Part shown: one piece after another, positions 9,914 to 64,000 of the stretch
Numbering within the stretch: the stretch's first letter is position 1
Layout: every line of letters starts with the position of its first letter
Sequence record: NZ_CP118990.1
Strand: one strand, 5' to 3'
Source of the DNA: a plasmid
Length of the DNA: 64,000 nucleotides
The notes under the pieces: generated by a model
Told to the model about the DNA's origin: nothing
The model's input: the letters and a program-made list of their open reading frames with translations, nothing else
The model's database searches: none
Program-made: the position numbers and the translations under genes

Positions 9914-9940
9914 TGGGTGCAGGTTGCTAGATCTAGCCCG

Positions 9941-10600: not shown

Positions 10601-10620
10601 GCTAAGACTGGTATTTGTAG

Positions 10621-10653
10621 ATAAAAAAATGGCCGCTAACAGATGGCGGCCAG
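10621..10653 (-). terminator. Rho-independent terminator of the minus-strand lipoprotein gene
   Basis: On the minus strand: hairpin tggccgc-catctgtta-gcggcca followed by a T-run. Confidence 0.6.
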
Positions 10654-42741: not shown

Positions 42742-43467
42742 ATGATGACATTGACCACTGTCGCCAAAAAGACATCCAACAACTCAGCCCTGGTATTCTG
42801 GCGCGTAGGTACGAAACGCAAGGGCATTCTGGACGTTCGCACGGACTTCGAGCATGAGGAATCTGACCTCCTCGCAGAGTTGATCGCGATTCGACACCTG
42901 GCATTGGATAAGCAGGTATTCTGCCGGGAGCCAGGCGCCGGAGCTGGTTACAAGCTGGTGGTTTCGAAAGGTGCGATCAAGAAACTAGCGTTGGGGAAAT
43001 CAAGTAAGGCATTCGCCGCTAAGTTTGCATCCTTCCTGACTGGCAGGATGCAGGGGGCCACTATTGAAGTGGCCCAAGGCATGGATTACATGGATGAGCC
43101 CGGTGAGAGTAACATCGAACTCCTTGATGTGGACAAGCAGGCATTCACTCAAACCTATGATGAGATCAATACACCTGCTATTGGCCCAGTGCTTGTAACT
43201 CAACATGCCCTCAGCCAATATCAAGCTAGGATCACATCTGGTGACCCCAAGAAACCTTGGGCTTCGCTTGTCGGCCGCCTCAAGCACCCGGAGCTACAGT
43301 TGCAACCATTCGATGAGAGGGTGGCCCGCCACAAAGCAATGAGGTATGGCCGCGTGGATAACGTGGAAGTCTGGGGGCACCGGGATTCTAAATTCAAATA
43401 TCTGATGGTCATCAATGACGATAATAAGAAGCGGGTATTGGTAACTGTATTTGAACGAAAGGAATAG
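42742..43467 (+). CDS. Hypothetical protein (241 aa); last ~25 codons lie in a 162-bp direct repeat
   Basis: GAGGTAAG RBS; no motif recognised. Confidence 0.5.
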   Translation: MMTLTTVAKKTSNNSALVFWRVGTKRKGILDVRTDFEHEESDLLAELIAIRHLALDKQVFCREPGAGAGYKLVVSKGAIKKLALGKSSKAFAAKFASFLTGRMQGATIEVAQGMDYMDEPGESNIELLDVDKQAFTQTYDEINTPAIGPVLVTQHALSQYQARITSGDPKKPWASLVGRLKHPELQLQPFDERVARHKAMRYGRVDNVEVWGHRDSKFKYLMVINDDNKKRVLVTVFERKE

Positions 43468-43551
43468 TTGAGTAATTTGTCATATAGATCTTATTCTGCA
43501 AGGTGTAAAAAATCGGTGCCGACTAGGCAGTTATCGGACAGATCGCCTTGA
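43389..43551. repeat. Direct repeat copy 1 (~162 bp), second copy at 46609-46770
   Basis: taaattcaaatatctgatggtcatcaatgacgataataag...ggacagatcgccttgaa identical at both sites. Confidence 0.85.
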
Positions 43552-43826
43552 ATGTGGATAGTCGATGAACGATCTCCGGGTTGATAGGAGCGACGCAGGG
43601 TCTTGCCATCAACGGCAATCAATGCCCCATCCATCTGCTGCTGGATGGCCTGGGTCCAGCGAATGAATGCTGCCTGAAACTGCTCTGGCTGGATGCGGGA
43701 GATGATCCTGGCGATGGTGTCATGCACAGGAATACCATTTAGAAACAGTCCCTTATCTTGAAGCCATGCCAGATGGACCTCGCCAAAGTCTTCGATGTCC
43801 TCCCACCCCTGAGCGCCACCAATCAC
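43491..43826 (-). pseudogene. ISAs1 (H-repeat) family transposase N-terminal fragment, truncated at both ends and fused to the duplicated 3' end of the 46711 gene
   Basis: GAQGWEDIEDFGEVHLAWL...NGIPVHDTIARIISRIQPEQFQAAFIRWTQ...AVDGKTLRRSY matches the conserved N-terminal region of ISAs1/H-rpt transposases; lacks ~35 N-terminal aa and the entire catalytic region. Confidence 0.6.
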
Positions 43827-43873
43827 AGCGCAAACGGTCAGAAACAGGACATCGTAAAAGGGATAAGAGATTT

Positions 43874-44437
43874 TTGGATGATGTCACACTGGTGGTTTCA
43901 GAAGGGGATACGACGCAGATAGACCACATTGTCGTTGCTCCAACCGGAATATTTGTCGTCGAGACAAAGTTCTATAAAGGCCGGATTTATGGCAAGGAAT
44001 CAGACAAGCAGTGGACCCAGAAAATCTTCAAGAACACCTATAAGTTCCAGAACCCGTTTCGTCAGAACTACAAGCATGTGAAGGCTATTGAGGCACTTCT
44101 TCCCAACATTGGGTTGGCAAACATTCATTCCGTGGTTGTCATGCTCGGGGAATGTGAGTGGGCAAGCAAAGATCGACCAGCAGCTCTCTTCACTTCCGGG
44201 TGGAAAGCGGCGGACTACATTAACGACATGATTGCCAGTGGACAGAAGGTGCTCGATGTCGAAGAGGCCTCTGCGAGGCTCCAGAGTCTCAGGCTAAATG
44301 TTTCTCGAAAGGCTGGGCGCGGTGGTAGGACTATTGCAGAGGCAGTTAAAGAAGGTATTAATGTTCGTGTAATACAAGAATCTAATGGTGATATTGTTTC
44401 GGGTTTTCCAACAAACGTACCAAGGAATCCAAAATGA
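43874..44437 (+). CDS. NERD (nuclease-related domain) protein, apparently N-terminally truncated (TTG start?)
   Basis: QIDHIVVAPTGIFVVETKFYKG...W.Q......YKFQNPFRQNYKH matches the NERD family core; no upstream TM/N-terminal region; abuts the transposase fragment. Confidence 0.55.
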   Translation: MDDVTLVVSEGDTTQIDHIVVAPTGIFVVETKFYKGRIYGKESDKQWTQKIFKNTYKFQNPFRQNYKHVKAIEALLPNIGLANIHSVVVMLGECEWASKDRPAALFTSGWKAADYINDMIASGQKVLDVEEASARLQSLRLNVSRKAGRGGRTIAEAVKEGINVRVIQESNGDIVSGFPTNVPRNPK

Positions 44438-45303: not shown

Positions 45304-45759
45304 TGTGGATCAGGCTCTGGCGTTGGCCCGGCCGCCGTCAGCGGCCAAGTGGTTTGGAAGGCGAGCTACAGCCCGTTCGGTAAGGCCAGCGTCACCACCC
45401 AGGGGCCAACCTTCAACCTGCGATTCCCAGGACAGTATTACGACGCGGAGACCGGGCTCCATTACAACTGGCATCGCTACTATGACCCAGCACTTGGCCG
45501 TTACTTACAATCAGACCGCCTTGGCCTGTTCGATGGGGTGGATACCTATGGGTATGTTCGCGCAAACCCTTTATCTGCCGGAGCGGCGGCTGGTGCGGGT
45601 ATAGCCAGCCTGCTTGGTCAAAGTGCTGGTCTATATGTTTCAGGAAAGGATGTTACTGATTACTGTAATTATGATTTTTCCGCTGTGGCTGGAGCTGCGC
45701 TGGGAGGGGCTTTAGGAGGACCTCTAGGAAGTACAATAGGGCGTTATATTAGCCCTTAG
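45304..45759 (+). CDS. Orphan Rhs C-terminal fragment: end of the RHS core plus a short Gly-zipper C-terminal (toxin) domain; no canonical start
   Basis: SYSPFGKA....[38 protein letters not shown] is the hallmark RHS core terminus (PxxxxDPxGL region); followed by a ~75-aa G/A-rich tail; the frame opens directly after the stop of the preceding gene. Confidence 0.65.
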
Positions 45760-46239: not shown

Positions 46240-46287
46240 GAACGGCTTGAAATATTGCCACCAGCGGTTAAGCCTGCTGGTGGCGTA

Positions 46288-46607
46288 GGGAAGGTGCGAA
46301 TAAGTCACCAAACATAAAAATGTGTGGGATGAAAATAAAGTTTCATCCTTGCAAATAAAGTGTCATCCCAACGGGATGAAAGCATTGATTTTGCTGGGCT
46401 GTAGCCGTTCTTACTGCTCAAATCACTGACTTTAGGATGAAACTTTAACCATCGTAGCGGGCTGGATCGCAACGTAATTTCTGGGTTTCAAGGCGGCGAA
46501 AGGATGAAACTTTATTTTCATCCAACAAAATGCGCCCTTGTAAGTATTTGAATTTAATGAACTAAATTTTTCTGTTTCGTTGTGGAGGGTGCTTATTCGC
46601 ACCCTCC
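46288..46607. mobile_element. ISAs1-family-derived miniature element (MITE): terminal inverted repeats GGGAAGGTGCGAATAAG / GGAGGGTGCGAATAAG, no transposase
   Basis: Left end gggaaggtgcgaataagtcacc at 46288; right end (reverse complement) ggagggtgcgaataagcaccc at 46607; interior carries GGATGAAA inverted-repeat motifs (46326, 46360, 46437, 46501). Confidence 0.5.
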
Positions 46608-46608
46608 A

Positions 46609-46770
46609 TAAATTCAAATATCTGATGGTCATCAATGACGATAATAAGAAGCGGGTATTGGTAACTGTATTTGAACGAAAGGAATAGTTGAGTAATTTGT
46701 CATATAGATCTTATTCTGCAAGGTGTAAAAAATCGGTGCCGACTAGGCAGTTATCGGACAGATCGCCTTG
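46609..46770. repeat. Direct repeat copy 2 (~162 bp)
   Basis: Identical to 43389-43551; begins immediately after the MITE right end. Confidence 0.85.
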
Positions 46771-47253
46771 AAAAAGCAGAGTAGAGATCTCTTGCTCTGT
46801 AATTAAATTATTGCTTTTAAGAACATTTATTAAGGCTGTATCAGCAATATCGTGGAATCCCTCAATAAGGTCTTCCACCATTGCGGCAGCCTTTCGTTCT
46901 TCTTCGCTTTTCCCCATCGACCCGTCGCAGAGCCAATCTTCCACATTGCCGTATTGGGCAACGTAACTGAGTTGTTCGCACTCATGCGCAATCAGCCCAG
47001 TAACTCTCTCCATGAGTAGGTCATCGTAGGTGGGGAGTACCAGCACTGCGCCATGGCCTGGGATGTTGCGTTGGACCGTCGCCTCACTCTGAGGGCTACT
47101 TTTGAGCCATGAGAAGGCCCAAAGACCAGAACCGATCTTTTCAAGAAATATGCCTCGCTCGGAGAAGAAATCGGAGACATTTTTGAAGATGGTGCCACCT
47201 GGAGCGGCCATCGAATAGATGGATGCCATTAGCTCATCCTGACTCATGTACAT
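46711..47253 (-). CDS. Hypothetical protein (180 aa)
   Basis: AGAGG RBS before MYMSQDEL; C-terminal 18 aa identical to the fused tail of the transposase fragment because of the direct repeat. Confidence 0.5.
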   Translation of the reverse strand: MYMSQDELMASIYSMAAPGGTIFKNVSDFFSERGIFLEKIGSGLWAFSWLKSSPQSEATVQRNIPGHGAVLVLPTYDDLLMERVTGLIAHECEQLSYVAQYGNVEDWLCDGSMGKSEEERKAAAMVEDLIEGFHDIADTALINVLKSNNLITEQEISTLLFQGDLSDNCLVGTDFLHLAE

Positions 47254-47644
47254 TCACACACACCTCTTGACTTGTTAATTTGTTTGTATAAGCGACCATC
47301 ACCGGGTCGATAATAAATCACGATCCTTGTACTAGACTTGTATAAGCAAAGATTGTACCAGTAGTACGGATTTCGAGTTAGGTTGCACAGTAAACTACCC
47401 GACAGACTATGACTGATAAAATTAAACTGCATCAGATTTTAGTCTATTCGATTGTAGACTGCTGAAAAGAGGATTAGCTCAAAGTGCGGGGGGAACTTAA
47501 ATGGCTCATTGCGCTGAGTGTTTCTACACAATGAGCCATTTAATTGACCCTCTACAAGGGGAGGGAGTGACTGTTGGGGCTTTGAAGAGGCACCTAAGAC
47601 AATAGGCGTAAACCGCCAACTATTGGGCGGAAGCGACACGTCTG

Positions 47645-48676
47645 TCAGGCGTCTTTCTTTACCTTGTGGAAGGAGCTGGTGACGTCGTTGCGCCAAGCGT
47701 CATAGGCTAGGTGCAGCACTTCTCCCTCAACCCGGAACCCTTCACCATCAAATTCGATCTTACCAATAGTCACTGGGCTCAGTGCCTTCGGCGGCCAAGT
47801 CTTCACATCCCAAGAGCCGGATACCAAACCGCAGTTATGAGCTTGGTGTCCGCCCATGCGGGGGGAACGAGCGAATTCTAACAAAGCAGCAATGAAAAAG
47901 CCCAGTTCGATCTGACTGACTGACTTGAGGGACATGCGGTGCTCCATCACTGTACCGGCGCAGATCGCCTCGTATTGGTCGATGGGGCGACGTATAGACT
48001 CCCGAGCCTCCCCCTTCTGATCTTTGCGATCTTGGATTTGTGCGTCCAATGCCGCGAGCTGGTCAAACAACACCCTTTTCTCGTCGTTCGGAGCCGTTTT
48101 CAACTGTTTTTTCAGCTCTTTTTGCTTGTCCTTCAATACTCCGACGTCGGCGGAGGCAAGGGTCTGCTCTTCCAAAATGGTTTGGAGCCGGTTTCTTTCC
48201 GACTGATCCAGTGTTTCGAGGAGCTCCGGGGAGCGTTCAAACATGATGGTGCGAGCACCACCACCAAACATGGCCGTTGCATTGGCCGTGATGGGGAAGC
48301 CGTTCCCTATGTTAGCTTTTGATGGAAGCCCCCATATGCCGAAGAGACTCAGCATCGGGTTGCCTTCGCGCAAGTGTCGATCAGAGTTCACCTCGTCGTC
48401 GGCAGGGGCAGAAATATCTCCCACAATGTCTACCCCTTGGGCCAACATGAAATGCTCTGCCAGGTCAAATGGTGGGCGTTGATTGTCTTCATTGAACATC
48501 AACACAACCCGGTGCGCAGCATGGCGCAATGAACCACGGGTAGTCGTTGCAGGCCAATAAGCTGGGGCATCGAACCCGCCATTACGTGGCAGGCGGCCCT
48601 GGGTGTTTTTTATGGTGACGGTCAAGGGCTCAACTGCGGTCAGGTGGCCGTCGAAAACAAAGGTACTTTGAGTCAT
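47645..48676 (-). CDS. csf2: Csf2, type IV Cas7-like backbone protein
   Basis: RAMP-like G-rich region PATTTRGSLRHAAHRVV; size 343 aa; last gene of a csf1-cas6-dinG-csf3-csf2 operon. Confidence 0.6.
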   Translation of the reverse strand: MTQSTFVFDGHLTAVEPLTVTIKNTQGRLPRNGGFDAPAYWPATTTRGSLRHAAHRVVLMFNEDNQRPPFDLAEHFMLAQGVDIVGDISAPADDEVNSDRHLREGNPMLSLFGIWGLPSKANIGNGFPITANATAMFGGGARTIMFERSPELLETLDQSERNRLQTILEEQTLASADVGVLKDKQKELKKQLKTAPNDEKRVLFDQLAALDAQIQDRKDQKGEARESIRRPIDQYEAICAGTVMEHRMSLKSVSQIELGFFIAALLEFARSPRMGGHQAHNCGLVSGSWDVKTWPPKALSPVTIGKIEFDGEGFRVEGEVLHLAYDAWRNDVTSSFHKVKKDA

Positions 48677-48694
48677 GGAAATTCCTTGTTGATG

Positions 48695-49393
48695 TTAAAT
48701 CAGCTGGTGAAGCATTTCAGAACGGACCCTTTGGGGGGCGACAATGGGCATTTTTTCTTTTGAGTAATACGGAGGGAGCAGTGGCGATAGGCCTGGTACC
48801 CCATCGATCCCGGATGATACCGGGAGTGGTCGATTAGCCTTATCCAACAGGATAAGGCTGGCATCTTCCTGCATGGGGGTGATGATCAGATTATCAAAGG
48901 CTCCCATCTGGCAGTTCTGAGCGTCGTAACCTAAGCCCAGAACGAAAAAATCCAGCAACCCCTTTATCAGGTAGGGATTCCCCAATCCATCGAACACTGC
49001 AAAAGGGGCTTGGTAAGCGGGCATCTCCCGCAAGCGTCGTTTGGTCGGTCCTCCCTTGAGCTTGATCTTCACATAGCGTCCTTTGCCGTTGGGGGCAAAC
49101 ATCGCCGGAGATAGTTTCTCGGGAGTATGCCGATCTGCTCTGACGTAGCTGCCGACAGTCAAGCCAACGGCCATCGTGACACCGAATCTCATTGCCGAGG
49201 CATGGAAGACACCAAGTTGGTCGTTATAGAGAAGGTAGTTGCTCATTTCCTGCAAGAGTTCTTCCCTGCTGGCAAGTGGGGAGCGCTGGCTCAGAGCCTC
49301 AAAAACCAAAGCATCAAGAGTTGGGGGGTAGTCAGTTAATACCACCGGGGTCTTTAACGACATGACCAGGCGAAAGGGTTCAAATTCGAACAT
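48695..49393 (-). CDS. csf3: Csf3, type IV Cas5-like protein
   Basis: N-terminal LKTPVVLTDYPPTLDALVFEAL pattern typical of Csf3/Cas5; 232 aa; start overlaps the dinG stop. Confidence 0.55.
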   Translation of the reverse strand: MFEFEPFRLVMSLKTPVVLTDYPPTLDALVFEALSQRSPLASREELLQEMSNYLLYNDQLGVFHASAMRFGVTMAVGLTVGSYVRADRHTPEKLSPAMFAPNGKGRYVKIKLKGGPTKRRLREMPAYQAPFAVFDGLGNPYLIKGLLDFFVLGLGYDAQNCQMGAFDNLIITPMQEDASLILLDKANRPLPVSSGIDGVPGLSPLLPPYYSKEKMPIVAPQRVRSEMLHQLI

Positions 49394-51342
49394 CAGAAGT
49401 AAACCTCCAATGGAGTTGCAGGTGATTGCTCGCCGTCAGTTAACAGCCCTTTGGCCTGCCGGTACTGTTGCAGAAACCGAACGGGAATGATGTTTCGCAG
49501 GATGGCGTGTTTGGACGACAAATCGTGAGACAGTGGGAAACGGGGATCGAGAATATCGACTTCAATGCAATCGTCAGGTGAACGGATCCCGCGGCCAATG
49601 GCTTGTCGCATCAACCGAATAACGGCGTTTTGAGTACGCATATACTCCTGCTTGTAGAGCTGTTTACTCAGGTCAGTCTTCTTGGTCTTCTTGTAGAAAC
49701 TTACCAACGCTTCGACTTCGGAAGTGCGTGGTTGGCCGTAGGCAATTCGAGTGATCATCAGGCGATCGAATCCAACTGAGCCAGCGTCATCGGTGATATT
49801 GAGCCCGGTATGGCCCGCAGCGGTGATCATTACTCCCCGGCCATGATGTCTGCATACCTTCTTGAACTCTTCAATCAATGATTTGAGTGGGGTGCCACGC
49901 TGGTGGACCAGCACCTGCCGATGCTCAATTTGAGCCAAAACTGCGGCCAATTTACGGCTCTCTTCATGTGAAGCTGTCAGCACAACCACCCGTCCGCATC
50001 GGTTGGTGATCTGATGTGCGACTGCTTGCAACCATTTTTCAGAAAGGGCAGGGGCATTCCCCTCAGAGGACGGTCTTGAGTAGATAGCCGGGAACGAGGG
50101 GCCCGCCAGAGTCAGGGTCATGCTCCCATATTTTTTCGGGGAGAAAAGGGCAATGGCGCCGAGCATGGTGTCATCAATACCAAGTTCCATTCGCAACGAA
50201 GTGGTACCATTCACTGGCTCAGGCGTGATACTCAGTGTGCCGGAGGTGAGGAGAACAGACTCAAAAGCTGAGGTCGCGTATTTCCCGAAGAACCGAACAA
50301 ACCACGGGGAGAGTGAGACGATGGCCGGTTCCCGGCGTATCAGTGAAACGCCGATCCCCATGGACGAGGTTTGCATCATCAGGAGCTGCTGCTGCAAAGA
50401 TGTTGAGACATCCTTATCCAGGTTATTCAACCGGCAAATCTTCTCGATCTTTCCAATGGTGGCCCGCGCCAGTTCCGCCAGCTCGGTATCCCAGGCATAT
50501 TGCTGCATCCCCAGCCGCTCTTGGATTGTCTTAATTGAATTAGCAAGAGGGGCTAATTGCCGAGCTGATAGTTGCTCGCCCAACTGGGAGGCGACACGAA
50601 CAAGATTCAGGCGCCGCTGAGTCCATTCTTGCAACCGATTCACCAGGGCATCAGCTTCATCAACAATCAGCACTGTCGGCCGTGACTTATCGGCCAAAAG
50701 CGCATTATTTCGCAGCATGTCTACTGCGATCATGGCATGAGTTGTGACCACGATGTCGCATTTAGATTCAGCCTGTTGCTGTTCGTCAAATGCCTCATTT
50801 TCACACTCAGCCGTCAGGCAAATTTGAGAGGCCAACAAGTCGCAGGGGAGTCCGCCAAACTCATCCTCAAATTCTGCAATCGTCCCTGACCAGTCACGCA
50901 AAGTAGCCACTTCGCGCTCCTCTAGGGCTGACAGAGAGCGGTTGGTGAGGGCAATATTGATCCGCTTTGGCGATACGAAATTGACCCGTCCGAGAAGACG
51001 GCCGATAGACAACGGTCTATGTCCATAATGACGGGCGACTTTGGTCAGCAGCACACTGTCTTTTTCGAGAAGTTGTTGCATCAGTGCGTGGCTGTGTGTT
51101 GCGACGATAACCCGAGGGCGACGTGGGTCGCAGAGTGCAAACTGCATGGCTGGCAAGAGATAGCCCAGCGACTTTCCGAGGCCGGTGTCAGCGTGAAGAA
51201 GCGATATTTTCCCGGTGTCAGCCAGCACTTGCTCAATCATTAGCGCATATTGGGTCTGCTCATCCCGAGCGATGAGGCCGCCAGCGGCCATCAGCTCTCC
51301 GAACTTGGCTGTGTGGATCCCGTCCTCTGGCAAGGGGCTCAT
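49393..51342 (-). CDS. dinG: Csf4/DinG, type IV-A Rad3/XPD-like helicase
   Basis: Helicase motif I HADTGLGKSLGYLLPA; motif II VLIVDEADALV; DinG/Rad3-like insert regions; 649 aa. Confidence 0.75.
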   Translation of the reverse strand: MSPLPEDGIHTAKFGELMAAGGLIARDEQTQYALMIEQVLADTGKISLLHADTGLGKSLGYLLPAMQFALCDPRRPRVIVATHSHALMQQLLEKDSVLLTKVARHYGHRPLSIGRLLGRVNFVSPKRINIALTNRSLSALEEREVATLRDWSGTIAEFEDEFGGLPCDLLASQICLTAECENEAFDEQQQAESKCDIVVTTHAMIAVDMLRNNALLADKSRPTVLIVDEADALVNRLQEWTQRRLNLVRVASQLGEQLSARQLAPLANSIKTIQERLGMQQYAWDTELAELARATIGKIEKICRLNNLDKDVSTSLQQQLLMMQTSSMGIGVSLIRREPAIVSLSPWFVRFFGKYATSAFESVLLTSGTLSITPEPVNGTTSLRMELGIDDTMLGAIALFSPKKYGSMTLTLAGPSFPAIYSRPSSEGNAPALSEKWLQAVAHQITNRCGRVVVLTASHEESRKLAAVLAQIEHRQVLVHQRGTPLKSLIEEFKKVCRHHGRGVMITAAGHTGLNITDDAGSVGFDRLMITRIAYGQPRTSEVEALVSFYKKTKKTDLSKQLYKQEYMRTQNAVIRLMRQAIGRGIRSPDDCIEVDILDPRFPLSHDLSSKHAILRNIIPVRFLQQYRQAKGLLTDGEQSPATPLEVYF

Positions 51343-51911
51343 AACACCTCCAGGTTCGACAACTGGCCGTAGCCAAATACCCGCTTACGGCCAATGCCAT
51401 AAACAACAGCCTGCTCGGCCAGCGCAACATCCTTGATCTCAGCAACGACACTGACCGGGTTGCACTGGAGGGTGAAGCTCTGTTTTTTCTTGAGGTAGCG
51501 CTCCAGGTAGGGGCTGTTGGCTGAGTGGCTCTGGAGCGAGAGTCCTGCCCCTTCGCACTGCCTGGCTAGAACATCAGGCAAGATGGCCATCGGCAGATTC
51601 ATCGACCGTTTTTTGGTGGTGCCTGGGATCGGATGCTTGATTGGGAAGCAGAAGTTGAGGTTGAACATGACTGCATCTGCCACGTTCAGTTCAAGTTGTA
51701 CGGCTTGTTCGCCAGCTAGGCCAAGTTGCGTTGCCGATCGCAAGTAGATAACGGTTGTGTTGGGCTCATGAGGGTGAGCAATCCGCCGCCAGCTATAGGG
51801 GACTTTACAGCGCAATGTCTCCTGTACCAAATAATCAAGACGCTGGTGGACCAGATACGGAAGAGACGGGTCAGTTTCACGCAGTTTGAGGGTGTTTTCA
51901 TAGTAAATCAT
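51339..51911 (-). CDS. cas6: Cas6-family crRNA endoribonuclease (Csf5; Cas6e-like)
   Basis: C-terminal glycine-rich loop GIGRKRVFGYGQLS characteristic of Cas6; 190 aa; CRISPR repeats nearby are I-E-like. Confidence 0.6.
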   Translation of the reverse strand: MIYYENTLKLRETDPSLPYLVHQRLDYLVQETLRCKVPYSWRRIAHPHEPNTTVIYLRSATQLGLAGEQAVQLELNVADAVMFNLNFCFPIKHPIPGTTKKRSMNLPMAILPDVLARQCEGAGLSLQSHSANSPYLERYLKKKQSFTLQCNPVSVVAEIKDVALAEQAVVYGIGRKRVFGYGQLSNLEVL

Positions 51912-52744
51912 TGGAGCTTGTCCGCGATGTGAATCAGCTTGAGGCGCTGGTGGGGGTCCGCCGGTAAAGTGCGAAATATCGTGCCGAACGATGGTTTTTT
52001 GCTGATCTGTTCACTGGCCTGCTGGGGGGTAATGCGTCCGTTCGAGAGGCCAACGACTAACTTATTGAAGGCGTTGCGTTCCTGACTTGTTAGTGTGTTG
52101 AGCCCCCCTGATAGCCGCATGGCCGCATCCAGATTAACCGTGCATTCGACTCGGGTAACTGAATCCATACCGGCGTCACTACAGCAGTAGAGCGCCTGCG
52201 GTGACAGAGATATGGTCAACCCTCGCATAAGCGCCGCGGTTTTACGTCCGAAAGATTCGATGTATAGCAGAGGGAATTTTGCATTCTCTGCGATCCATGG
52301 CAGGTGACCACCAACGGTAATCTTCACCACATCGACGTGCTCTAAAAATGATGCAGGGAACTTGTCATACACCCCTGGTGGGGCTAGGAGCGTTGAACGC
52401 TGAGGCTTACCTGGGACATCTGCAATTTCGTGCACCCAACCGACACCACTCATCATTCCAAAGCGCTGGCCCACCTTCTTGTCGCTTTTCCCGGCAGTTC
52501 GCTCATTACCCATGATGTTGGGGTCGGTCACAAACATGGCCTGGCAAGGAGCACAGTGGTTGAACGGCGTTTTATAGCTATCCAGACCTTGATAACCCAC
52601 ACGGTCAAACGAGCTTGCAGGGCGCTTGCAGCAAGAACATGCCGCACCAGTCTTTACAGCTTCTCCCAAGGCTGGAGCCAAAATATGGGTGAGGTTGGCA
52701 TAAAGAAGATCAATTGGATGTTGCACGTCACCTCCGAGAAACAT
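51908..52744 (-). CDS. csf1: Csf1, type IV large-subunit-like protein with zinc finger
   Basis: Cys cluster CSCCKRP...CAPC near the N-terminus; 278 aa; first gene of the operon. Confidence 0.55.
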   Translation of the reverse strand: MFLGGDVQHPIDLLYANLTHILAPALGEAVKTGAACSCCKRPASSFDRVGYQGLDSYKTPFNHCAPCQAMFVTDPNIMGNERTAGKSDKKVGQRFGMMSGVGWVHEIADVPGKPQRSTLLAPPGVYDKFPASFLEHVDVVKITVGGHLPWIAENAKFPLLYIESFGRKTAALMRGLTISLSPQALYCCSDAGMDSVTRVECTVNLDAAMRLSGGLNTLTSQERNAFNKLVVGLSNGRITPQQASEQISKKPSFGTIFRTLPADPHQRLKLIHIADKLQ

Positions 52745-52865
52745 TCTGAAACAGTTTCACATAAGATAATAGATTTCTTTTTTTTGTAAAGAGGCAGGTC
52801 CTTGATAATCGACCGTTTTTAGTGGCCTGGTAGAAACGGGTGCTGTATAAGCTAAAACCTCGGTA

Positions 52866-52989
52866 TGCCGCCCTTTGGCGGGGGTTAGCGGTTTGAGCCA
52901 GCGCAAAAACAAGCCAGAGCAGAGCCATGCTGGAGTGCCTCCCAGTGGCGGGGGTTAACAGATGAATGGCAACCTCTGGGGTTGAACGG
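52866..52989 (+). CRISPR. Vestigial CRISPR mini-array: 2-3 degenerate repeats adjacent to the cas operon start
   Basis: tgccgccctttggcgggggttagcgg (52866), tgcctcccagtggcgggggttaacag (52936), ctctggggttgaacgg (52971) resemble the main-array repeat ..CCCCCGCAGGCGGGGGTTAACGG. Confidence 0.4.
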
Positions 52990-53088
52990 AGGTAAAGCTC
53001 CGGGGGCCATAGCCCCTATGTTGGGAGCGCCATGTTCAGTGACATTTTACCAACGGAACAAAGTTCTGGTGTTATTTCAGGGGGAAGT

Positions 53089-53751
53089 ATGAAGGGTAAT
53101 ATAATTTCATGGAAAGATGAAAAAGGCTTCGGCTTTATAAAAAATGATGAGAATGGCGAACATATATTTTTTCATATATCGAGCGTTATAAAAGGGACGA
53201 GGCAGCCTATTGTTGGTGATGCAGTTACATTTGATGTAGGGGTTGATTCCAGCAACCGAAAAAAAGCAAAAGATATTTTTATTGAAGGGGTGTCATTTAC
53301 CAATATCCCAAGGCGAGTATTTACGGAAAAGGTTAAGCGCGACCGTTTCGATTATTATTGTTACGTCGCGATAGTGTTATCAGTGGCAATAACACTCGCT
53401 GTGTATATTAAAATGGGGCAGCCTCGACTGGCATTATTTCCCGCCGCCGTTGCTATAATGCTGTTTTTGTATATCTCCGTCCGTACTAAAAAACCTGCAA
53501 ATGACATATTCTCATGCGGGAAATGCTCATCAGTGGTTAGACATGACGCAAGAACCATTCGGGCATGGAATAAGGGTGCGTGTAAATTATATTGCAGAAC
53601 CTGCAATCAGAACTGGCATCGTGAAAAGCCACAAAGGGATAGCACTAAAAAATATAATCGCCCTCAGAAGTCTGGATGTCTAGGGGTATTATTATTTATA
53701 ACATTCGTGCCGGTATTTTTAATTTCAAGCATCATCACCTTACTGGTGTAG
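53089..53751 (+). CDS. Cold-shock-domain protein fused to a membrane (DUF1294-like) region with a CxxC...CxxC zinc-ribbon insert
   Basis: N-terminal CSD KGFGFI...GEHIFFHISS; two or more TM helices; CGKC...CRTC. Confidence 0.55.
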   Translation: MKGNIISWKDEKGFGFIKNDENGEHIFFHISSVIKGTRQPIVGDAVTFDVGVDSSNRKKAKDIFIEGVSFTNIPRRVFTEKVKRDRFDYYCYVAIVLSVAITLAVYIKMGQPRLALFPAAVAIMLFLYISVRTKKPANDIFSCGKCSSVVRHDARTIRAWNKGACKLYCRTCNQNWHREKPQRDSTKKYNRPQKSGCLGVLLFITFVPVFLISSIITLLV

Positions 53752-53793
53752 AAAGAAATGTTGAAGCCTTGTTGCCTGGACTATTAACTGAAT

Positions 53794-53827
53794 GAGCCTC
53801 ATCATAATCATGGGTGAGGCTTTTTTA
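53794..53827 (+). terminator. Rho-independent terminator
   Basis: gcctca...tgaggc hairpin followed by T6. Confidence 0.55.
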
Positions 53828-53907
53828 ATGGCCCGATAAAGGGCGAAAAGTGTCGCTCTCAAATTGCCACGCACTGACCGCGTTTCCCAAGTCGATGACA
53901 CTGAATA

Positions 53908-54040
53908 GTGTACAAACTTTATTATGCAAGTGACTGATCTGTAGTGTCCGTTGTGTACAAACTTTACTGTCCGAGTCACCGCTACGCCGTGTTTGCTGCG
54001 TACAAACTTCATTGTCACTGTACTGCTTGCGCAGCCTAAC
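53908..54040. repeat. Three direct repeats with 45-bp period carrying G(T/C)GTACAAACTT
   Basis: gtgtacaaactttat at 53908, gtgtacaaactttac at 53953, gcgtacaaacttcat at 53998. Confidence 0.7.
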
Positions 54041-54222
54041 GGCGCCTGCGGCCACAGTACAGACAACCCCGCATTGCGTACTTCTCCATGCCCTCCTTCA
54101 CACACAGAGGCTCAAGCGTGTCTCTGTGTGTCTCTACTTATTAAAATGATTCTTTGAAAAAGTAGTGTTTATAAAATAGGATAGTTGGCAGGAAAGTCCT
54201 TCATTTTTCACGGAGAGAACGC

Positions 54223-54753
54223 ATGAGAGAGGTGCACTTCATTAGCCAGGTCGAGGCCGAAAAACTGGCGCCGGTTGCCGGTGCGGCGATGATCTCGATC
54301 ACCGACCCGGACAAACCGGAGGCGGCCCTGGGAGATTGGCAACTCTTGTATCGGGACAGCTTTTACGATGGTGGCTACAGTGAGGACACCATCCGTACCA
54401 TGAAAGGGTCTTTTCGGATGAGCTACGCATCCTACATTGACTCCCATCAGGCGAAGAACCTATCCAACTACATCGATGAGCTGGTGCAGAGCGGCATCAG
54501 CCAGATCTTTGTTCACTGCTACTACGGGGAATCCCGAAGTGGCGCGATTGCTTTGTATCTGTGCAACAAACATGGATTCACCTCGAACAAGCCCATCACC
54601 AAGCCTAACAGGACGGTCTACGATCTCCTCTGCTCCCCTTTGAAATATGAAGCACTGATACAGAGTTACGAAACACAAGATGCTGCGCCTACCGAGAGTA
54701 TCTACACCAAGATATGGGATTTATTGCTCGTGGCTATCGGTGTTAGGAGGTAA
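54223..54753 (+). CDS. CX5R protein-tyrosine/dual-specificity phosphatase-like protein
   Basis: Active-site signature VHCYYGESRSG (HCxxGxxRS); GGAGAG RBS. Confidence 0.5.
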   Translation: MREVHFISQVEAEKLAPVAGAAMISITDPDKPEAALGDWQLLYRDSFYDGGYSEDTIRTMKGSFRMSYASYIDSHQAKNLSNYIDELVQSGISQIFVHCYYGESRSGAIALYLCNKHGFTSNKPITKPNRTVYDLLCSPLKYEALIQSYETQDAAPTESIYTKIWDLLLVAIGVRR

Positions 54754-54755
54754 CT

Positions 54756-55760
54756 TTGCACCAACGGAACAACCGCGACACCACTGAACTTTCACACGCG
54801 AAAGTCATTGTCTTGCCAGAACAAACCTCAGGTGGAGGCCTCCCGCAAGTCACCGGGGGGCTCAGAAGCGCACAAGATAATCCGGCAGTTGCATACCTGA
54901 TCAGCCTTGGCTCCAGGCGCAGTCGGCAAACCATGGGCTCATTTCTCAGCATTGTTGCTCGGATGATCGGGTACCAAAACCTGCGTGATTGCGCGTGGGA
55001 GTCGATGCGGCGGCATCATGTCCAAGCTGTGATCCAAATGCTCAGTGACTCTGACCGAGCGCCAGCTACGATCAATACCTACCTGGCAGCGCTGAAAGGA
55101 GTTGCCCTGGAAGCGTGGACAATGAAGCTGATTGATACCGACAGTTACCAGCATATCAAGCAGGTGCGTTCGGTGAGAGGCTCTCGTTTACCCAACGGGC
55201 GGGCCCTCGAAAAGCACGAGGTCAGAGCCCTTTATTTCACATGTGAAAACGATCGGAGCTCCAAAGGGCTGCGTGACGCAGCCATCCTTGCTGTTTTAGT
55301 CGGGTGCGGACTTCGGCGCTCAGAGGTTGTCGCCCTCGATATGGAATGTGTCATCACCAGGGATCAGGCACTTCGTGTGCTCGGTAAGGGCAATAAAGAA
55401 CGCATCGCCTATGTGCCTGACGGGGCATGGCAGCGGCTTATGCGGTGGGTGGAGGAGGTTCGTGGTGATCAGCCGGGATCGCTGTTTCAGCGGATCAGGC
55501 GGTTTGATGATGTCACCGCCGACAGAATGACTGACCAGGCTATCTATCACATTCTTGAAACGAGAAGGATTGAGGCGGGGCTGGAAAAATTCGCTCCTCA
55601 TGATCTCCGCAGAACCTTTGCATCGGCCATGCTGGATAATGGCGAGGACATCATCACGGTCAAGGATGCGATGGGCCATGCCAGTGTCACGACCACGCAG
55701 AAGTATGATCGTCGGGGAGATGAGCGATTGAAACAGGCCAGTCGGCGACTCGATTTTTGA
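54756..55760 (+). CDS. Tyrosine recombinase/integrase (XerD/phage-integrase family)
   Basis: C-terminal catalytic motifs HDLRRTFAS...GHASVTTTQKYDRR (R..HxxR..Y); TTG start with AGGAGG RBS 5 nt upstream; overlaps the upstream stop; contains one ATTTCACATGTGAAAA palindrome. Confidence 0.75.
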   Translation: MHQRNNRDTTELSHAKVIVLPEQTSGGGLPQVTGGLRSAQDNPAVAYLISLGSRRSRQTMGSFLSIVARMIGYQNLRDCAWESMRRHHVQAVIQMLSDSDRAPATINTYLAALKGVALEAWTMKLIDTDSYQHIKQVRSVRGSRLPNGRALEKHEVRALYFTCENDRSSKGLRDAAILAVLVGCGLRRSEVVALDMECVITRDQALRVLGKGNKERIAYVPDGAWQRLMRWVEEVRGDQPGSLFQRIRRFDDVTADRMTDQAIYHILETRRIEAGLEKFAPHDLRRTFASAMLDNGEDIITVKDAMGHASVTTTQKYDRRGDERLKQASRRLDF

Positions 55761-55888
55761 GTCGGAAGACCAATGTTAATCAGTTGCGCACTCAGAATTT
55801 AAGAGGTAAATTTCAGCCACCAATCCTCAAGTGTGCGAACATCGCTGAACGTGACCTAATCTTGATGGTAATTGTTGACTTGGTAAGT

Positions 55889-56584
55889 ATCGCCCCCCCG
55901 CAGGTGGGGGTTAACGGGCGTGTAAAGCGTCCAACGTGACTTACAGAAAATCGCCCCCCCGCAGGTGGGGGTTAACGGAGTGGATGCATTTGCTGACTTC
56001 CACCGATGAATCGTCCCCCGTGCCTGGGGGTTAACGGTACTCGGCCTGGCACAACATGGACCTCACCCGATTTCTCCCCCGCAGCTGGGGGTTAACGCCG
56101 CGAGGGGAGCTGTTGCTATAGCGGGAATGAATCCCCCACCGCAGGCGGGGGTTAACGGCGTCAGCACATCACACAGCTATTGAGCACCAGATCGATCCCC
56201 CGCAGGCGGGGGTTAACGGTTTTCGATGATGTCGGTGGCGTTTGCCATCATATCGCCCCCCGCAGGCGGGGGTTAACGGACGCTGATAACGCATATCGAC
56301 GACGGATTTGAATCACCCCCCCGCAGGCGGGGGTTAACGGCCCGCGGGATAGAGAAGTGGTGCCATCAGCGCATCTCTCCCCCGAGCCTGGGGGTTAACG
56401 GTGCCCTTTTTGTGCACAAACAAAAAAATCAAAATCCATCCCCCTGTTACGGGGGTTAACGAAGCGGGACGTCGTGGTGCTGTGCTGCGGCTGCATCTCC
56501 CCCCAGCAGGCGGGGGTTAACGTTAGCTTCACACCAGGCCTTGATAGCATCGCCGATCTATCCCTCGCGACTGGGGGTTATCGG
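55889..56584 (+). CRISPR. CRISPR array, 12 repeats of 28-29 bp with 11 spacers of ~32 nt; consensus ATCGCCCCCCGCAGGCGGGGGTTAACGG; repeats unusually heterogeneous
   Basis: Period ~61 bp; conserved 5' ATC + C-run and 3' GGGGGTTAACGG; loop and stem flank vary between units; terminal unit degenerate (ttatcgg); geometry and stem-loop resemble type I-E/IV-A3 repeats; AT-rich leader-like 128 bp upstream. Confidence 0.8.
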
Positions 56585-60464: not shown

Positions 60465-60602
60465 TGACATGACGGGATAAGCAAGGTGGGCCGTTGAAAA
60501 CGGCCATATCCGGGGTTTGGGGAGCAATGGAACCAAAAACCAACGTAAGCTCTGAATCCCACCGTAAAGGGGCTTTCCGATCTCCAGCTCACCCGCCAGG
60601 CA

Positions 60603-61004
60603 TTACTCTCTGATCAGTGCCTCGATGATCGGGCAGATCGTTCCGCCGTCTCCCGCATCACATTGCTGCACCAGTTCGCCTAACAGTTGCTGCATGACGA
60701 CCAAGTCGGCCATCTTCTGCTCGATCAACGCGAGCTTGCGTGCAGCCCGTGCTCGCGTTTCGGCACAGGCGCACGACTCATCCAGCGTCAGCAGTCCACC
60801 GACTTCCGAGAGCGTGAAACCCAGCGCCTGAGCCCGCTTGATGAAACGCAGTCGCTTCACCATGTCCACCGGATAGCGCCGATGGCCACCCAAGGGTTTG
60901 GCTGGTTCATCCAGCAGCCCGCGTCGCTGGTAGTAGCGGATCGTCTCGACGTTCACCCCGGCGGCGTCTGCCAGCTTGCCAATGGTCAGCTCTGTGGCCA
61001 TCAC
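60603..61004 (-). CDS. merR: MerR, Hg(II)-responsive transcriptional regulator
   Basis: N-terminal HTH GVNVETIRYYQRRGLL and C-terminal metal-binding Cys pattern (C..C, CP) closely parallel Tn21/Tn501 MerR; divergent from merTP. Confidence 0.85.
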   Translation of the reverse strand: MMATELTIGKLADAAGVNVETIRYYQRRGLLDEPAKPLGGHRRYPVDMVKRLRFIKRAQALGFTLSEVGGLLTLDESCACAETRARAARKLALIEQKMADLVVMQQLLGELVQQCDAGDGGTICPIIEALIRE

Positions 61005-61069
61005 TTTCTCCTTGATTCCGTACTTTGGTACGGAGTTTAGAATAGCACCTAGGCAATCAGGCTCAGGAG

Positions 61070-61426
61070 ATGGGAATGGGGATGCAACTCACCGGGAAAG
61101 GCTCGCTGGTCGCGAGTTCGCTGACCGCCATCGGTGCGTCGGTGTGCTGTGTCGGGCCACTGGTGCTGTTGGCACTCGGTGTCGGCGGTACGTGGGTGGG
61201 CGCTCTGACCATGATGGAGCCACTACGCCCCCTCTTCATCGGGTTGACTCTACTGTTCCTGGGATTGGCATTCCGCAAGCTCTACCTGGTGCCACAGGTT
61301 TGTACGCCAGGTACACCCTGCGCCGATCCGCGCACGCTCGTGCGACAGCGACTCGTGTTCTGGATCGTCAGCGTGCTGCTGCTCGGCCTATTGGCCGTGC
61401 CGTGGCTCGCCCCGCTGTTCTACTGA
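61070..61426 (+). CDS. merT: MerT, mercuric ion transport membrane protein
   Basis: Conserved first-helix CC pair (ASVCCVGPLVL) and second Cys pair; length and TM pattern as Tn21 MerT. Confidence 0.8.
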   Translation: MGMGMQLTGKGSLVASSLTAIGASVCCVGPLVLLALGVGGTWVGALTMMEPLRPLFIGLTLLFLGLAFRKLYLVPQVCTPGTPCADPRTLVRQRLVFWIVSVLLLGLLAVPWLAPLFY

Positions 61427-61438
61427 AGGAGATTAACC

Positions 61439-61714
61439 ATGCGCAAACTGCTGATCGCCGTGCTTTTCGCCTTGCCCTTCGTGGCGCTGGCGGCTCCCCC
61501 GAAAACCGTCACGCTCGACGTGCAGAACATGACGTGCGGACTCTGTCCGATCACGGTCAAGAAGTCGCTGGAGAAGGTGTCCGGCGTGAGTGACGTCCAG
61601 GTCAATTTCGACCAGAAGACGGCGACCGTCACCTACGATCCCGATAAGGCCCAGCCCGAGGCACTGACTGAGGCGACCGCGAACGCGGGATACCCCTCCA
61701 CAGTGCAGAAGTGA
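61439..61714 (+). CDS. merP: MerP, periplasmic mercury-binding protein
   Basis: Signal peptide plus HMA motif GMTCGLCP. Confidence 0.85.
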   Translation: MRKLLIAVLFALPFVALAAPPKTVTLDVQNMTCGLCPITVKKSLEKVSGVSDVQVNFDQKTATVTYDPDKAQPEALTEATANAGYPSTVQK

Positions 61715-61721
61715 GGTCACG

Positions 61722-61934
61722 ATGAGCGCCATTGTCCTTGAGTCCGTGCTGACTTGCCCGCGCTGCGGCTTCGCCAAGCCGGAAACCATGCCCACGGACG
61801 CCTGCCAGTTCTATTACGAGTGCAGCAACTGCAAGGCGCTGCTGCGCCCCAACCCAGGGGATTGCTGCGTTTTCTGTTCGTTCGGCTCGGTGAAGTGCCC
61901 GCCGATCCAGCAGCAGCTTGGGTGTTGCTCATAG
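61722..61934 (+). CDS. Small Cys-rich (zinc-ribbon-like) protein in the merA position
   Basis: CPRCG...CSNCK...CCVFC; 70 aa; is not MerA/MerC/MerF by inspection. Confidence 0.35.
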   Translation: MSAIVLESVLTCPRCGFAKPETMPTDACQFYYECSNCKALLRPNPGDCCVFCSFGSVKCPPIQQQLGCCS

Positions 61935-61946
61935 CGTTTAGGGGGA

Positions 61947-64000
61947 TCACAGGTCGTCGTCTGGATTACGCAGTGGCCGCAGCTCGCCGCGCGCAACTTC
62001 TTCCGGTACCGCAAAGGAATACCGCCCGAGCATGTTGATGTGCTCGTAGATCAGCGGCGATAGCCGGGCCAAATCCTCTTCCAGCACTGGATAGCCGTGC
62101 TGCTTGAGCCGTTCCACGGCCGCCGTCATGTAGAGGGTGTTCCACAGCACGATGATGTTCACCACCAGGCCCAGAGCACCGAGCTGGTCTTCCTGGCCTT
62201 CGCGGTAGCGCTGGCGGAGCTCGCCGCGTTTGCCGTGGAACACGGCGCGGGCCAGGCTGTGCCCGCCTTCGCCTCGGTTCAACTGGGTCAGGGTGGCGCG
62301 GCGCTTGGACTCGTCGTCGATATAGGTCAACGTGTGCAGAGTCTTTTCGATCCGCCCGAATTCGGCCAGCGCCTGGGCCAGCCGGGTGGGTCTATCTCCC
62401 GTTTGCAGCGTGCGCATGATGCCAGTCGCCGGCACCCGGCCGAGTTTGAGCGAGCCGGCCAGGCGCAGCAGGTCGTCCCAGTGCTCGGCGATCAGGTCGA
62501 GTTTGACCGACTGGCGGGCCAGCCCGTTGAGCTTGCCGTAGTCCGCGTCCGGGCGCGTGCGCCAGAAGCGGGTACCGCCGACATCGGCCAGCCGCGGACT
62601 GAAGTGGTAGCCAAGTAGGCGGAAGAGCCCGAACACCACATCGCTGTAGGCCCCGGTGTCGGTCATGATTTGCGTCGGCTGCAACTCGGTCTGCTGTTCC
62701 AGCACGACCGCCAGCAACACCAGGCTGTCGCGCAGCGTGCCGGGCACGGTGATGGCGTTGAGGCCGGAGAATTGGTCGGAAATCAGGTTGTACCAGGTGA
62801 CACCCCGGCCGGTGCCGAAATACTTCGGATTGGGGCCGGCATGCACGGTGCGCACCGGTATGACGAAGCGCATGCCATCGGCGGAGGCGACCTCGCCGCC
62901 ACCCCAGACTTGGGCCAGTTCCAGTTGGCTTTGCGCTCCGACCAGGATGGCGTTAGCCGCTGACAGGGTGTCGTCGCGGATATAATTCTGGCTGACCCAG
63001 GACAGCCGGTCACGGCGCAGCGCCGGGTTGTCGGTGCGGATCAAGGGCTCCAGGCCGGTGTTGCAGGCCCCGCCCAACAGCACCGCGCAGAGGCTGGTGA
63101 CCAGGTTGTCGGCGCGTGCATTGCGTTCGGAGACATGGGTGAAGGCCTCGGAAAAGCCAGTGCGGGCGGCGATTTCCAAGAGGATTTCCGGCAGATCGAC
63201 ACGCGGCATCAGGTCAGACACGGCCGCCCGCAGTTGCAGCAACGAGCAGGGCTCGTCCAGCTTGTCCAGCGCCCCGAGCGACAGTTCGGTCTTGCCCTCG
63301 GTGTTCTCGCTCAGTTGAATCGCCGGGTTGTCGGGCAGGCGCGCGGCTACTGCCAGCCAGGTTGCATCCAGCTCGACGGACAAGGCGTCCAGGGTGGTTT
63401 TGGCGTCGATGGTCACGCCCAGTGACCGGCAGATGATCGGTCGCGCCGCCAGCCATTCGGCACCGTCGAGCAGGCCAAGGCGCGGGTCGGCATAGCGCCA
63501 ACTGGGCGAGACGAAGACATCGCGGCGGCGCAGGGCCGTGCGCAGCGCATCGAGCGTGCAGAACACATAGGCACCCATGTCGAGGGAGCCATCTTCGCGG
63601 GTGATGTGCTTCTGCCAAGCCTTGGCCACGATCTCCTGCGGCGCGTCATCCTCTGGCTTCCGGCGCGGCAGGTTCAGTTGCAGCCACTCCAGACTAGCCG
63701 CCACGCCCTTGCCGGCCGGGCTGAAGCCGAAGCGGATGTGCTTGAGCAGGTCGGGCAGGAAGCGGCGCACGCTGCGGTAGCGCGCTTCCAATGCAAGAAA
63801 ATAGACGTCATCTACCGGGCGGATCAGCGCGTTGACCTCTTCCAGGGCCTTTTCCAGGGTGGTCCTCGGCAGGTCGTTGAACAGCCGGGCGCGCACGTTG
63901 TCATCGCTGATCGAGCTGTCCAGCACGACCTTGCACGCGGCGGCGAGCGTCGCGGCCGACCGATCCAGGTCTTTCAGGCTGCGCATGCGGGCTTTCTTGT
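61947..64000 (-). mobile_element. tnpA: Tn3-family transposase TnpA, C-terminal ~680 aa (N-terminus beyond window end)
   Basis: C-terminal region ...VNIIVLWNTLYMTAAVERLKQHG...SPLIYEHINMLGRYSF parallels the Tn21/Tn501 TnpA C-terminus; ORF runs off the window edge. Confidence 0.85.

Follow-up and report, generated by a model that had tools for sequence, protein, structure and literature searches.

A 64,000-nucleotide (nt) stretch of the plasmid sequence record NZ_CP118990.1, hereafter the window, was analysed with respect to the five-gene cas operon on its minus strand at 47645-52744. On the basis of profile and structure-database matches, the operon was confirmed as a type IV-A CRISPR-Cas effector of the subtype variant IV-A3. 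Very probably, this intact effector lies in a variable region of a pAsa4-family IncA/C-like (ACL) conjugative plasmid and is aimed at competing plasmids. An earlier interpretation made without database searches (the sequence-only reading) had recognised a type IV-A operon and had placed it in an SXT/R391-like integrative conjugative element (ICE). The CRISPR arrays, namely one main array and one degenerate mini-array, had not been seen in that reading.

Protein Identity and Subtype of the cas Operon

The five minus-strand open reading frames (ORFs) listed in the sequence-only reading were all present. These are csf1 (Cas8-like large subunit with a zinc finger; 51908-52744, 278 amino acids (aa)), cas6 (Cas6e-like CRISPR RNA (crRNA) endoribonuclease; 51339-51911, 190 aa), dinG/csf4 (CasDinG helicase; 49393-51342, 649 aa), csf3 (Cas5; 48695-49393, 232 aa), and csf2 (Cas7 backbone subunit; 47645-48676, 343 aa). 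From csf1 to csf2, the genes overlap by 4, 4, and 1 nt and are then separated by an 18-nt gap, and all five are intact. The motifs quoted previously were also found in the translations: GLGKS (Walker A) and VDEADAL (DEAD) in the 649-aa DinG, the zinc-finger cysteines CSCC...CAPC in the 278-aa Csf1, and the glycine-rich loop GIGRKRVFGYG that ends the 190-aa Cas6.

Subtype-specific PADLOC profiles covered five of the five proteins over their full length (Csf1_2_IVA3, 2e-65; Cas6_0_IVA3, 1.5e-23; Csf4_0_IVA, 4e-154; Csf3gr5, 2e-72; Csf2_1_IVA3, 2e-103). The next-best PADLOC matches of Cas6 after Cas6_0_IVA3 were Cas6e models. Moreover, four of the five proteins matched, over their full length, subunits of the solved Klebsiella pneumoniae IV-A3 complex (PDB 8rc2, 8s35). 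Csf1 matched 8rc2_G (4.7e-57) over residues 8-276 with all four CxCC...CxxC cysteines aligned, DinG matched 8s35_M (1.4e-97) over residues 19-631, Csf3 matched 8rc2_F (6.3e-60) from end to end, and Csf2 matched 8rc2_A (1.4e-100). At E <= 1e-5, the PDB sequence search returned no further protein for Csf2 or Csf3 and no further DinG sequence. The same search gave no match for Cas6. Its full-length alignment with the Klebsiella IV-A3 Cas6 (29% identity, E 6e-20) takes in the YxxHQ motif at the N-terminus and the G-rich loop at the C-terminus. The Csf assignments of the 278-, 232-, and 343-aa proteins, for which the sequence-only reading had proposed a profile check, hold in both PADLOC and PDB. 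These two resources were decisive, as Pfam and NCBIfam are insensitive for Csf1, Csf2, and Csf3: Pfam returned only the helicase domains of DinG and a sub-threshold Cas6e match (PF08798 CRISPR_assoc, 3.8e-4), and the NCBIfam matches to Csf2, Csf3, and Csf4 were all sub-threshold.

Sixty further ORFs of the window were searched, and no Cas family occurred among the best 25 of 32 (Pfam) or 54 (PADLOC) families, a range that extends down to roughly 1e-9 to 1e-11. Within the 64-kb window, nothing pointed to cas1, cas2, cas3, or another nuclease. The earlier claim of a type IV-A system lacking cas1, cas2, and cas3 is supported on this scale and can be refined to IV-A3. A DinG-family helicase (Csf4) inside the operon, the feature that separates IV-A from IV-B, IV-C, and IV-D, is present, and the Cas8-like zinc-finger large subunit separates IV-A3 from IV-A2 (PMC7038947). 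At the sequence level, every defining feature of IV-A3 that can be tested was found, and the classification is solid. The gene order was a different matter. The sequence-only reading had regarded csf1-cas6-dinG-csf3-csf2 as unusual, yet it is the canonical IV-A3 order and is identical in Klebsiella pRHBSTW-00867_2; the dinG-first order belongs to the Thioalkalivibrio-type IV-A locus (PMC7434947).

The start of csf1 is more likely the GTG at 52726, giving a Csf1 of 272 aa, because this codon is preceded by a GGAGG site, the profile and PDB alignments start at residue 8 of the 278-aa ORF, and several gene callers give 272 aa. A consensus scan placed a sigma-70-like promoter of the operon (TTTACA, 16 nt, TATCTT) on the minus strand at 52763-52790; it is presumably active. 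About 100 nt 3' of the csf2 stop, a 22-nt inverted repeat (47490-47550), which was missed by the terminator scan, is a possible terminator of the cas operon.

Main CRISPR Array and Its Targets

The main CRISPR array was located on the plus strand at 55889-56584 and comprised 12 repeats, each 29 nt long, interspersed with 11 spacers of 30-32 nt; the repeat next to the leader is ATCGCCCCCCCGCAGGTGGGGGTTAACGG. A scan of the window with the repeat-core pattern gave 25 matches, whereas 1.8 were expected by chance. The repeats of this array were unusually heterogeneous. In both the leader-end repeat ATCGCCCCCCCGCAGGTGGGGGTTAACGG and the Klebsiella IV-A3 repeat GTATTCCCCCCGTGTGCGGGGGTTATCGG, a 7-nt tag comes after a C5/G5 hairpin, and the two fold in a similar way. 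This design fixes plus as the transcribed strand of the array, whereas the cas genes are on the minus strand. The array is divergent from csf1 and 3.1 kb upstream of it, and three plus-strand genes lie between. In an alignment with the leaders of other Aeromonas IV-A3 arrays, the leader (55761-55888, plus strand) has CACCAA..., AACATCGCTGAA, and a TAAG near the first repeat in common with them. No Rfam family, the CRISPR-DR models included, was matched.

The targets of the spacers were explored in 72,556 plasmids. Spacer S06 (56220-56250, plus strand) matched at 29 of 31 positions in six large Aeromonas plasmids, and the matched gene was traA (pilin) wherever it was annotated. In the A. media plasmid pAeme3, the traA protospacer is preceded by AAG, the protospacer-adjacent motif (PAM) of IV-A3 and I-E; pAeme3 itself has a related IV-A3 system. 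A further 17 spacers taken from sister arrays added three targets, all of them on Aeromonas plasmids: one of 3 kb (97%), one of 7.5 kb from A. hydrophila (100%), and one of 67 kb from A. salmonicida, in which traC was matched (91%). A search of the phage collection gave no spacer match. Neither the 11 spacers nor the spacer of the mini-array matched the window, hence no self-targeting was seen. Reciprocal targeting in a local search among the fetched loci was limited to S06 against traA. The target pattern is plasmid against plasmid, as reported for IV-A3. The idea in the sequence-only reading that type IV systems mediate competition between mobile elements is supported by these matches.

Stoichiometry, the 7-nt tag, PAM reading, DinG recruitment, and transcriptional interference have been described for the Klebsiella system (PMC11519345; bioRxiv 2023.06.23.546257). 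By analogy, Cas6 would cut the array transcript at the base of the CCCCC/GGGGG hairpins and leave a 7-nt TTAACGG 5' tag. The crRNA would assemble Csf3 (Cas5), about six Csf2 (Cas7), Csf1 (Cas8), and Cas6, and the 5'-AAG PAM would be read by the zinc-finger domain of Csf1 and by Csf3. Formation of the R-loop would lead to the recruitment of CasDinG, and transcription of the target would be blocked without cutting. The proposed targets are competing plasmids, e.g., those of the pAeme3 type through their traA pilin gene. The source of new spacers would have to be either a Cas1-Cas2 of the host that acts in trans or an exchange between arrays by recombination.

Probable Carrier Plasmid

The closest DNA relatives of the window were the pAsa4-family plasmids pAsa4, pAsa4b, and pAsa4c, in a comparison set that was the plasmid collection and contains no chromosomal ICEs. 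The region 1-19 kb matched these plasmids at 92% identity with 92-95% coverage, and 71% of the region 20-45 kb matched pAsa4 at 91.6%. IncC plasmids matched at approximately 80% identity over about a quarter of the query. Synteny with pAsa4 and with A. veronii pWP8-W19-CRE-03_1 continued through the cas insertion site, where both plasmids have the genes for the 241-aa and 182-aa proteins to one side and those for the 176-aa protein and the recombinase to the other. Pfam matches among the 60 further ORFs included DsbC, TraC, S26 peptidase, TrbC, TraU, TraN, and TraG. RecT, YqaJ, DUF3150, VWA, a cytosine methylase, a toprim primase, and one tyrosine recombinase were also matched. The dsbC-traC-trhF-traWU-traN and bet/exo backbone is syntenic with the pAsa4 variants, and the replicon lies outside the window. 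The variant pAsa4c is an untyped ACL conjugative plasmid, the conjugation, repair, and regulation genes of which are syntenic with IncA/IncC (PMC11493245).

The placement in an accessory hotspot of an SXT/R391-type ICE was weighed against these data. The window does carry dsbC-traC-trhF-traW-traU-traN, bet/exo (RecT, YqaJ), DUF3150/VWA, and toprim genes, and as a fragment it is compatible with an integrated element. SXT/R391 ICEs have much of the conjugation and repair gene set of IncA/C-type plasmids, which would explain the impression of an ICE in the sequence-only reading. However, the nearest relatives are plasmids with synteny across the cas insertion site, and the window encodes a single tyrosine recombinase, of 334 aa, the gene of which is shared with pAsa4 and pWP8-W19-CRE-03_1. 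No SXT-type int/xis gene, attachment site, or other SXT/R391 feature was found within the 64-kb window. An ICE carrier is therefore highly improbable. Owing to the identity to pAsa4, the synteny at the site, and the absence of an SXT-type integrase or attachment site from the window, the most fitting description of the carrier is an ACL plasmid with the cas operon in one of its variable regions.

Sister Loci and Array Turnover

The identical DinG was indexed in 87 blocks of the public collection. A megablast search of the operon against plasmids gave no match, and blastn returned two A. media plasmids only, at 66% identity. Searching with Csf2 by tblastn gave no Aeromonas plasmid beyond these two, and a DinG-based search among genome contigs gave no confirmed relative. 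The order csf1-cas6-dinG-csf3-csf2 was present in every Aeromonas relative that was fetched. Their proteins were 54-97% identical to those of the window system (Csf2 was 73% identical to that of pAeme3), and in GenBank they are annotated as hypothetical proteins and a helicase only.

The relatives comprised A. media pAeme3/pAeme-like, A. caviae L016, and A. veronii L014 and L017, and an array opposite to the cas strand was the rule. In L016-L018, a divergent array directly abuts csf1, whereas the array of L014 follows the recombinase. pAeme3 (L001) has two arrays opposite to the cas strand (5337-5790 and 16240-16650), one convergent just downstream of csf2 and the other divergent approximately 5 kb upstream of csf1. 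The lineage with 90% identity (L014/L015) shares DNA with the window only over 47520-52797, ending just upstream of the -35 box of the cas promoter. The promoter is the last stretch conserved with this lineage and is also kept in L016-L018. Neither the mini-array nor the cold-shock-domain gene beside csf1 occurs in L014/L015, and among the Aeromonas IV-A3 loci both are restricted to the lineage of the window.

The sister arrays are mosaics with ordered spacer blocks in common. With the spacers of the window numbered 1-11, the order was 22, 1, 23-28, 20, 4, 5, 6, 8-11 in the cas-less pWP8 plasmid and 2, 3, 6, 12, 13, 9, 10, 7, 14 in L004. The first nine repeats of the pWP8 array, at the leader end, were near-uniform, whereas its trailer-side repeats were heterogeneous and shared with the window. 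This pattern, together with the mosaicism, suggests that the arrays change by addition and by rearrangement. Furthermore, three complete Aeromonas ACL plasmids (NZ_AP022282.1 (L019, 8903-9911), NZ_AP022242.1, and NZ_AP019196.1) carry a 17-repeat orphan array without a cas operon; it follows the same tyrosine recombinase and has eight spacers in common with the window. The converse was found in L007 (SRR7796540 contig): the cas operon, the mini-array, and the cold-shock-domain gene are present at 98.6% identity, and no array follows the recombinase. At least two backbone variants therefore carry the cas module. The cas-less arrays, the array-less L007, and the limits of the DNA shared with L014/L015 indicate that the effector module and the array behave as separable units.

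Mini-Array Beside the csf1 Promoter

The degenerate mini-array (52862-52961, plus strand) consists of repeat R1 (52862-52891), a 41-nt 'spacer' (52892-52932), and repeat R2 (52933-52961). It was present in 10 of the 10 contigs encoding the identical DinG, with one single-nucleotide polymorphism in R2. This conservation has no evolutionary weight, because the ten contigs are near-identical (98-100%). In a manual count, R1 matched the Klebsiella repeat at 23 of 29 positions and the main-array repeat at 18 of 29. The motif TTTTAGTGGC lies 46 nt upstream of R1, compared with 48 nt in the Klebsiella leader. According to the folding results, the hairpin of R2 was canonical and that of R1 was shifted. 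The simplest reading, and the most likely one, is that the mini-array is what decay has left of an array that formerly lay directly beside csf1, the arrangement still seen in L016-L018.

A role as a crRNA-like regulator, either a cas autorepressor of the CreR/CreA type or a guide silencing a host gene, was also considered. A guide silencing a host gene has been described for the IV-A1 system of P. oleovorans. In types I-B, I-E, and V-A, degenerate mini-CRISPRs serve as regulators of cas promoters, type IV not being mentioned in that paper (bioRxiv 2023.03.10.532045), and IV-A effectors work by transcriptional repression (PMC11519345). The mini-array resembles the CreR/CreA elements as a degenerate repeat-'spacer'-repeat beside a cas promoter; it lies in the divergent promoter region, its R2 hairpin is canonical, and it is kept in all ten contigs with the identical DinG. 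However, the feature that defines CreR/CreA, PAM-flanked partial complementarity to a cas or toxin promoter, was not found: in 52560-53200, no PAM-flanked partial match of the 41-nt segment exceeded the level of shuffled spacers. The segment had no match elsewhere in the window, and neither the plasmid nor the phage collection contained a target. When 185,579 representative genomes were scanned with a seed of the segment, ten hits in unrelated taxa were obtained, without PAM or extension. These hits were rejected as targets; they vary at three wildcard positions (every sixth base, third codon positions) and look like a conserved coding motif, F-E/D-P-A-Q-K/N-Q-A. Moreover, the mini-array is absent from the 90% sister lineage, R1 has its hairpin out of the usual place, and a guide of 41 nt would be of abnormal length. 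A regulatory function is accordingly very unlikely, and the decayed remnant is preferred. If the 41-nt guide did regulate, no natural regulatory mini-array of a type IV system would precede it.

Proposed Coupling of the Effector and the Main Array

Several observations weigh against the reading of a working IV-A3 system directed by the main array against other plasmids. The main array is remote from the cas operon and is also present on cas-less plasmids. In L007, the sequence after the recombinase stop (1-1113 of the contig) is unrelated and contains no array. Given the array-less operon of L007 and the arrays on cas-less plasmids, the pairing of Cas6 with the main-array repeat is one that we only infer. 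No strong plus-strand sigma-70 promoter match was found by a scan of the main-array leader. A target was detectable for only 1 of the 11 spacers, with two mismatches. Identity to the Klebsiella proteins is low (Csf1 39%, Cas6 29%, DinG 33%, Csf3 43%, and Csf2 50%). The circular plasmid status of the molecule was judged from its relatives, the window being a 64-kb fragment.

Some of these points would fit a rival explanation, in which the cas operon and the main array are no working pair. The array would then be an orphan of the backbone and the effector a separate acquisition, the own array of which has decayed; the effector would be idle or dependent on crRNAs supplied in trans. The array occupies the same position after the recombinase on the three complete cas-less plasmids, the Csf2 search of Aeromonas plasmids yielded the two A. 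media plasmids only, and the operon of L007 is accompanied by the mini-array and the cold-shock-domain gene but by no main array after the recombinase. The mini-array repeat is of a different type, closer to that of Klebsiella, and has the TTTTAGTGGC leader motif at a similar distance. On the other hand, the L014 operon, at 90% identity, pairs with the same array type in the same place. The hairpin and the 7-nt tag, the parts that are read by Cas6 and Cas5, are conserved among the mini-array, main-array, and Klebsiella repeats. Five intact cas genes and the identical DinG in 87 blocks argue for maintenance and not for decay. Hence, an unpaired operon and array are unlikely. The related notion of an uncoupled guide store and effector, in which the array is a feature of the backbone and the cas operon travels separately with its two-repeat unit, is likewise improbable, slightly more so. 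If orphan arrays on co-resident plasmids were read in trans, the arrangement would be one of a shared effector and distributed arrays. An intact effector working with the main array is the reading retained here.

Comparison With the Klebsiella IV-A3 System

The IV-A3 system of the IncHI1B/IncFIB plasmids of Klebsiella pneumoniae (p1530; PDB 8rc2, 8s35-8s37; Newire 2020, Benz 2023/24, Cepaite 2024) was used as the reference. Both systems have the five genes in the same order (pRHBSTW-00867_2), a zinc-finger Csf1, a Cas6e-like Cas6, and CasDinG, and both lack an adaptation module and a nuclease (here, within the 64-kb window). A 29-nt repeat with the CCCCC/GGGGG hairpin and the TTAxCGG tag, spacers of about 32 nt, the AAG PAM (one case here), spacers against plasmid conjugation genes, and a MOBH/MPF_F conjugative plasmid as the carrier are also common to them. 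The array of the Klebsiella system lies directly 3' of csf2 on the same strand, whereas that of the window is divergent and 3.1 kb upstream of csf1. The window system further differs in its Aeromonas host and ACL (pAsa4-family) carrier, in the extra degenerate mini-array at the cas promoter, and in the heterogeneous repeats of the main array. Judged from the identities given above, the proteins belong to a diverged Aeromonas clade of IV-A3.

To our knowledge, descriptions of IV-A3 have placed it almost exclusively on the IncHI1B/IncFIB plasmids of Enterobacteriaceae, Klebsiella among them, and a full-text literature search found no description of type IV-A in Aeromonas. The locus and its relatives show that a diverged IV-A3 clade circulates on IncA/C-like conjugative plasmids of Aeromonas, a group that matters as a vehicle of resistance genes in aquaculture and wastewater. 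With spacers aimed at other Aeromonas plasmids, the system extends the picture of warfare between plasmids to another plasmid family and host genus. Moreover, the natural variants (a detached divergent array, orphan arrays, and heterogeneous repeats) may be useful for exploring the requirements of the IV-A3 Cas6 and leader. The current understanding is not overturned, and the biology is as expected for IV-A3.

Neighbouring Genes and Other Features of the Window

Three plus-strand genes fill 53032-55760 between csf1 and the main array, and they are not part of the CRISPR system. The first (53032-53751, likely start 53089) encodes a membrane protein in which a cold-shock domain is combined with CxxC pairs and predicted membrane segments; it is divergent beside csf1, which it adjoins in every contig with the identical DinG, and is absent from the 90% sister lineage. 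The second (54223-54753) encodes a 176-aa protein and the third (54756-55760) the 334-aa tyrosine recombinase; both belong to the backbone of pAsa4 and pWP8-W19-CRE-03_1, which lack cas genes. A 23-nt direct repeat (53039, 54750) was considered as a recombination site and was judged to be at chance level. No transposon-like ends were found flanking the cas module. Several gene finders also reported a 66-aa ORF (52728-52928, minus strand) that extends from the 'spacer' of the mini-array across R1 and the csf1 promoter into csf1, and it is probably spurious.

A 166-nt direct repeat (43400-43565 and 46620-46785, 96% identical) brackets a 3.06-kb insert. Besides small ORFs, the insert encodes a protein with a NERD domain (43766-44437) and the fragment of an RHS/YD-shell tip (45349-45759). 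The sister contigs L003, L005, and L006 join 43552 directly to 46609, which indicates that the insert was gained or lost by recombination between the 166-nt repeats. An element of about 325 nt (46286-46610) that resembles a miniature inverted-repeat transposable element lies in the AT-rich gap before the 180-aa gene, with nested inverted repeats of 19 nt (46286/46592) and 28 nt (46323/46500, 96% complementarity). Just after traN, a 94-nt tandem repeat (9936-10450; 5.5 copies, 66% GC) lies within the ORF 9917-10624. As a copy also ends the unrelated part of L007, the 94-nt unit is a dispersed repeat. At the end of the window, a Tn3-family transposon with merR and mer genes (60513-64000) is 99.9% identical to elements of E. 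coli plasmids and is a recent insertion into the Aeromonas backbone.

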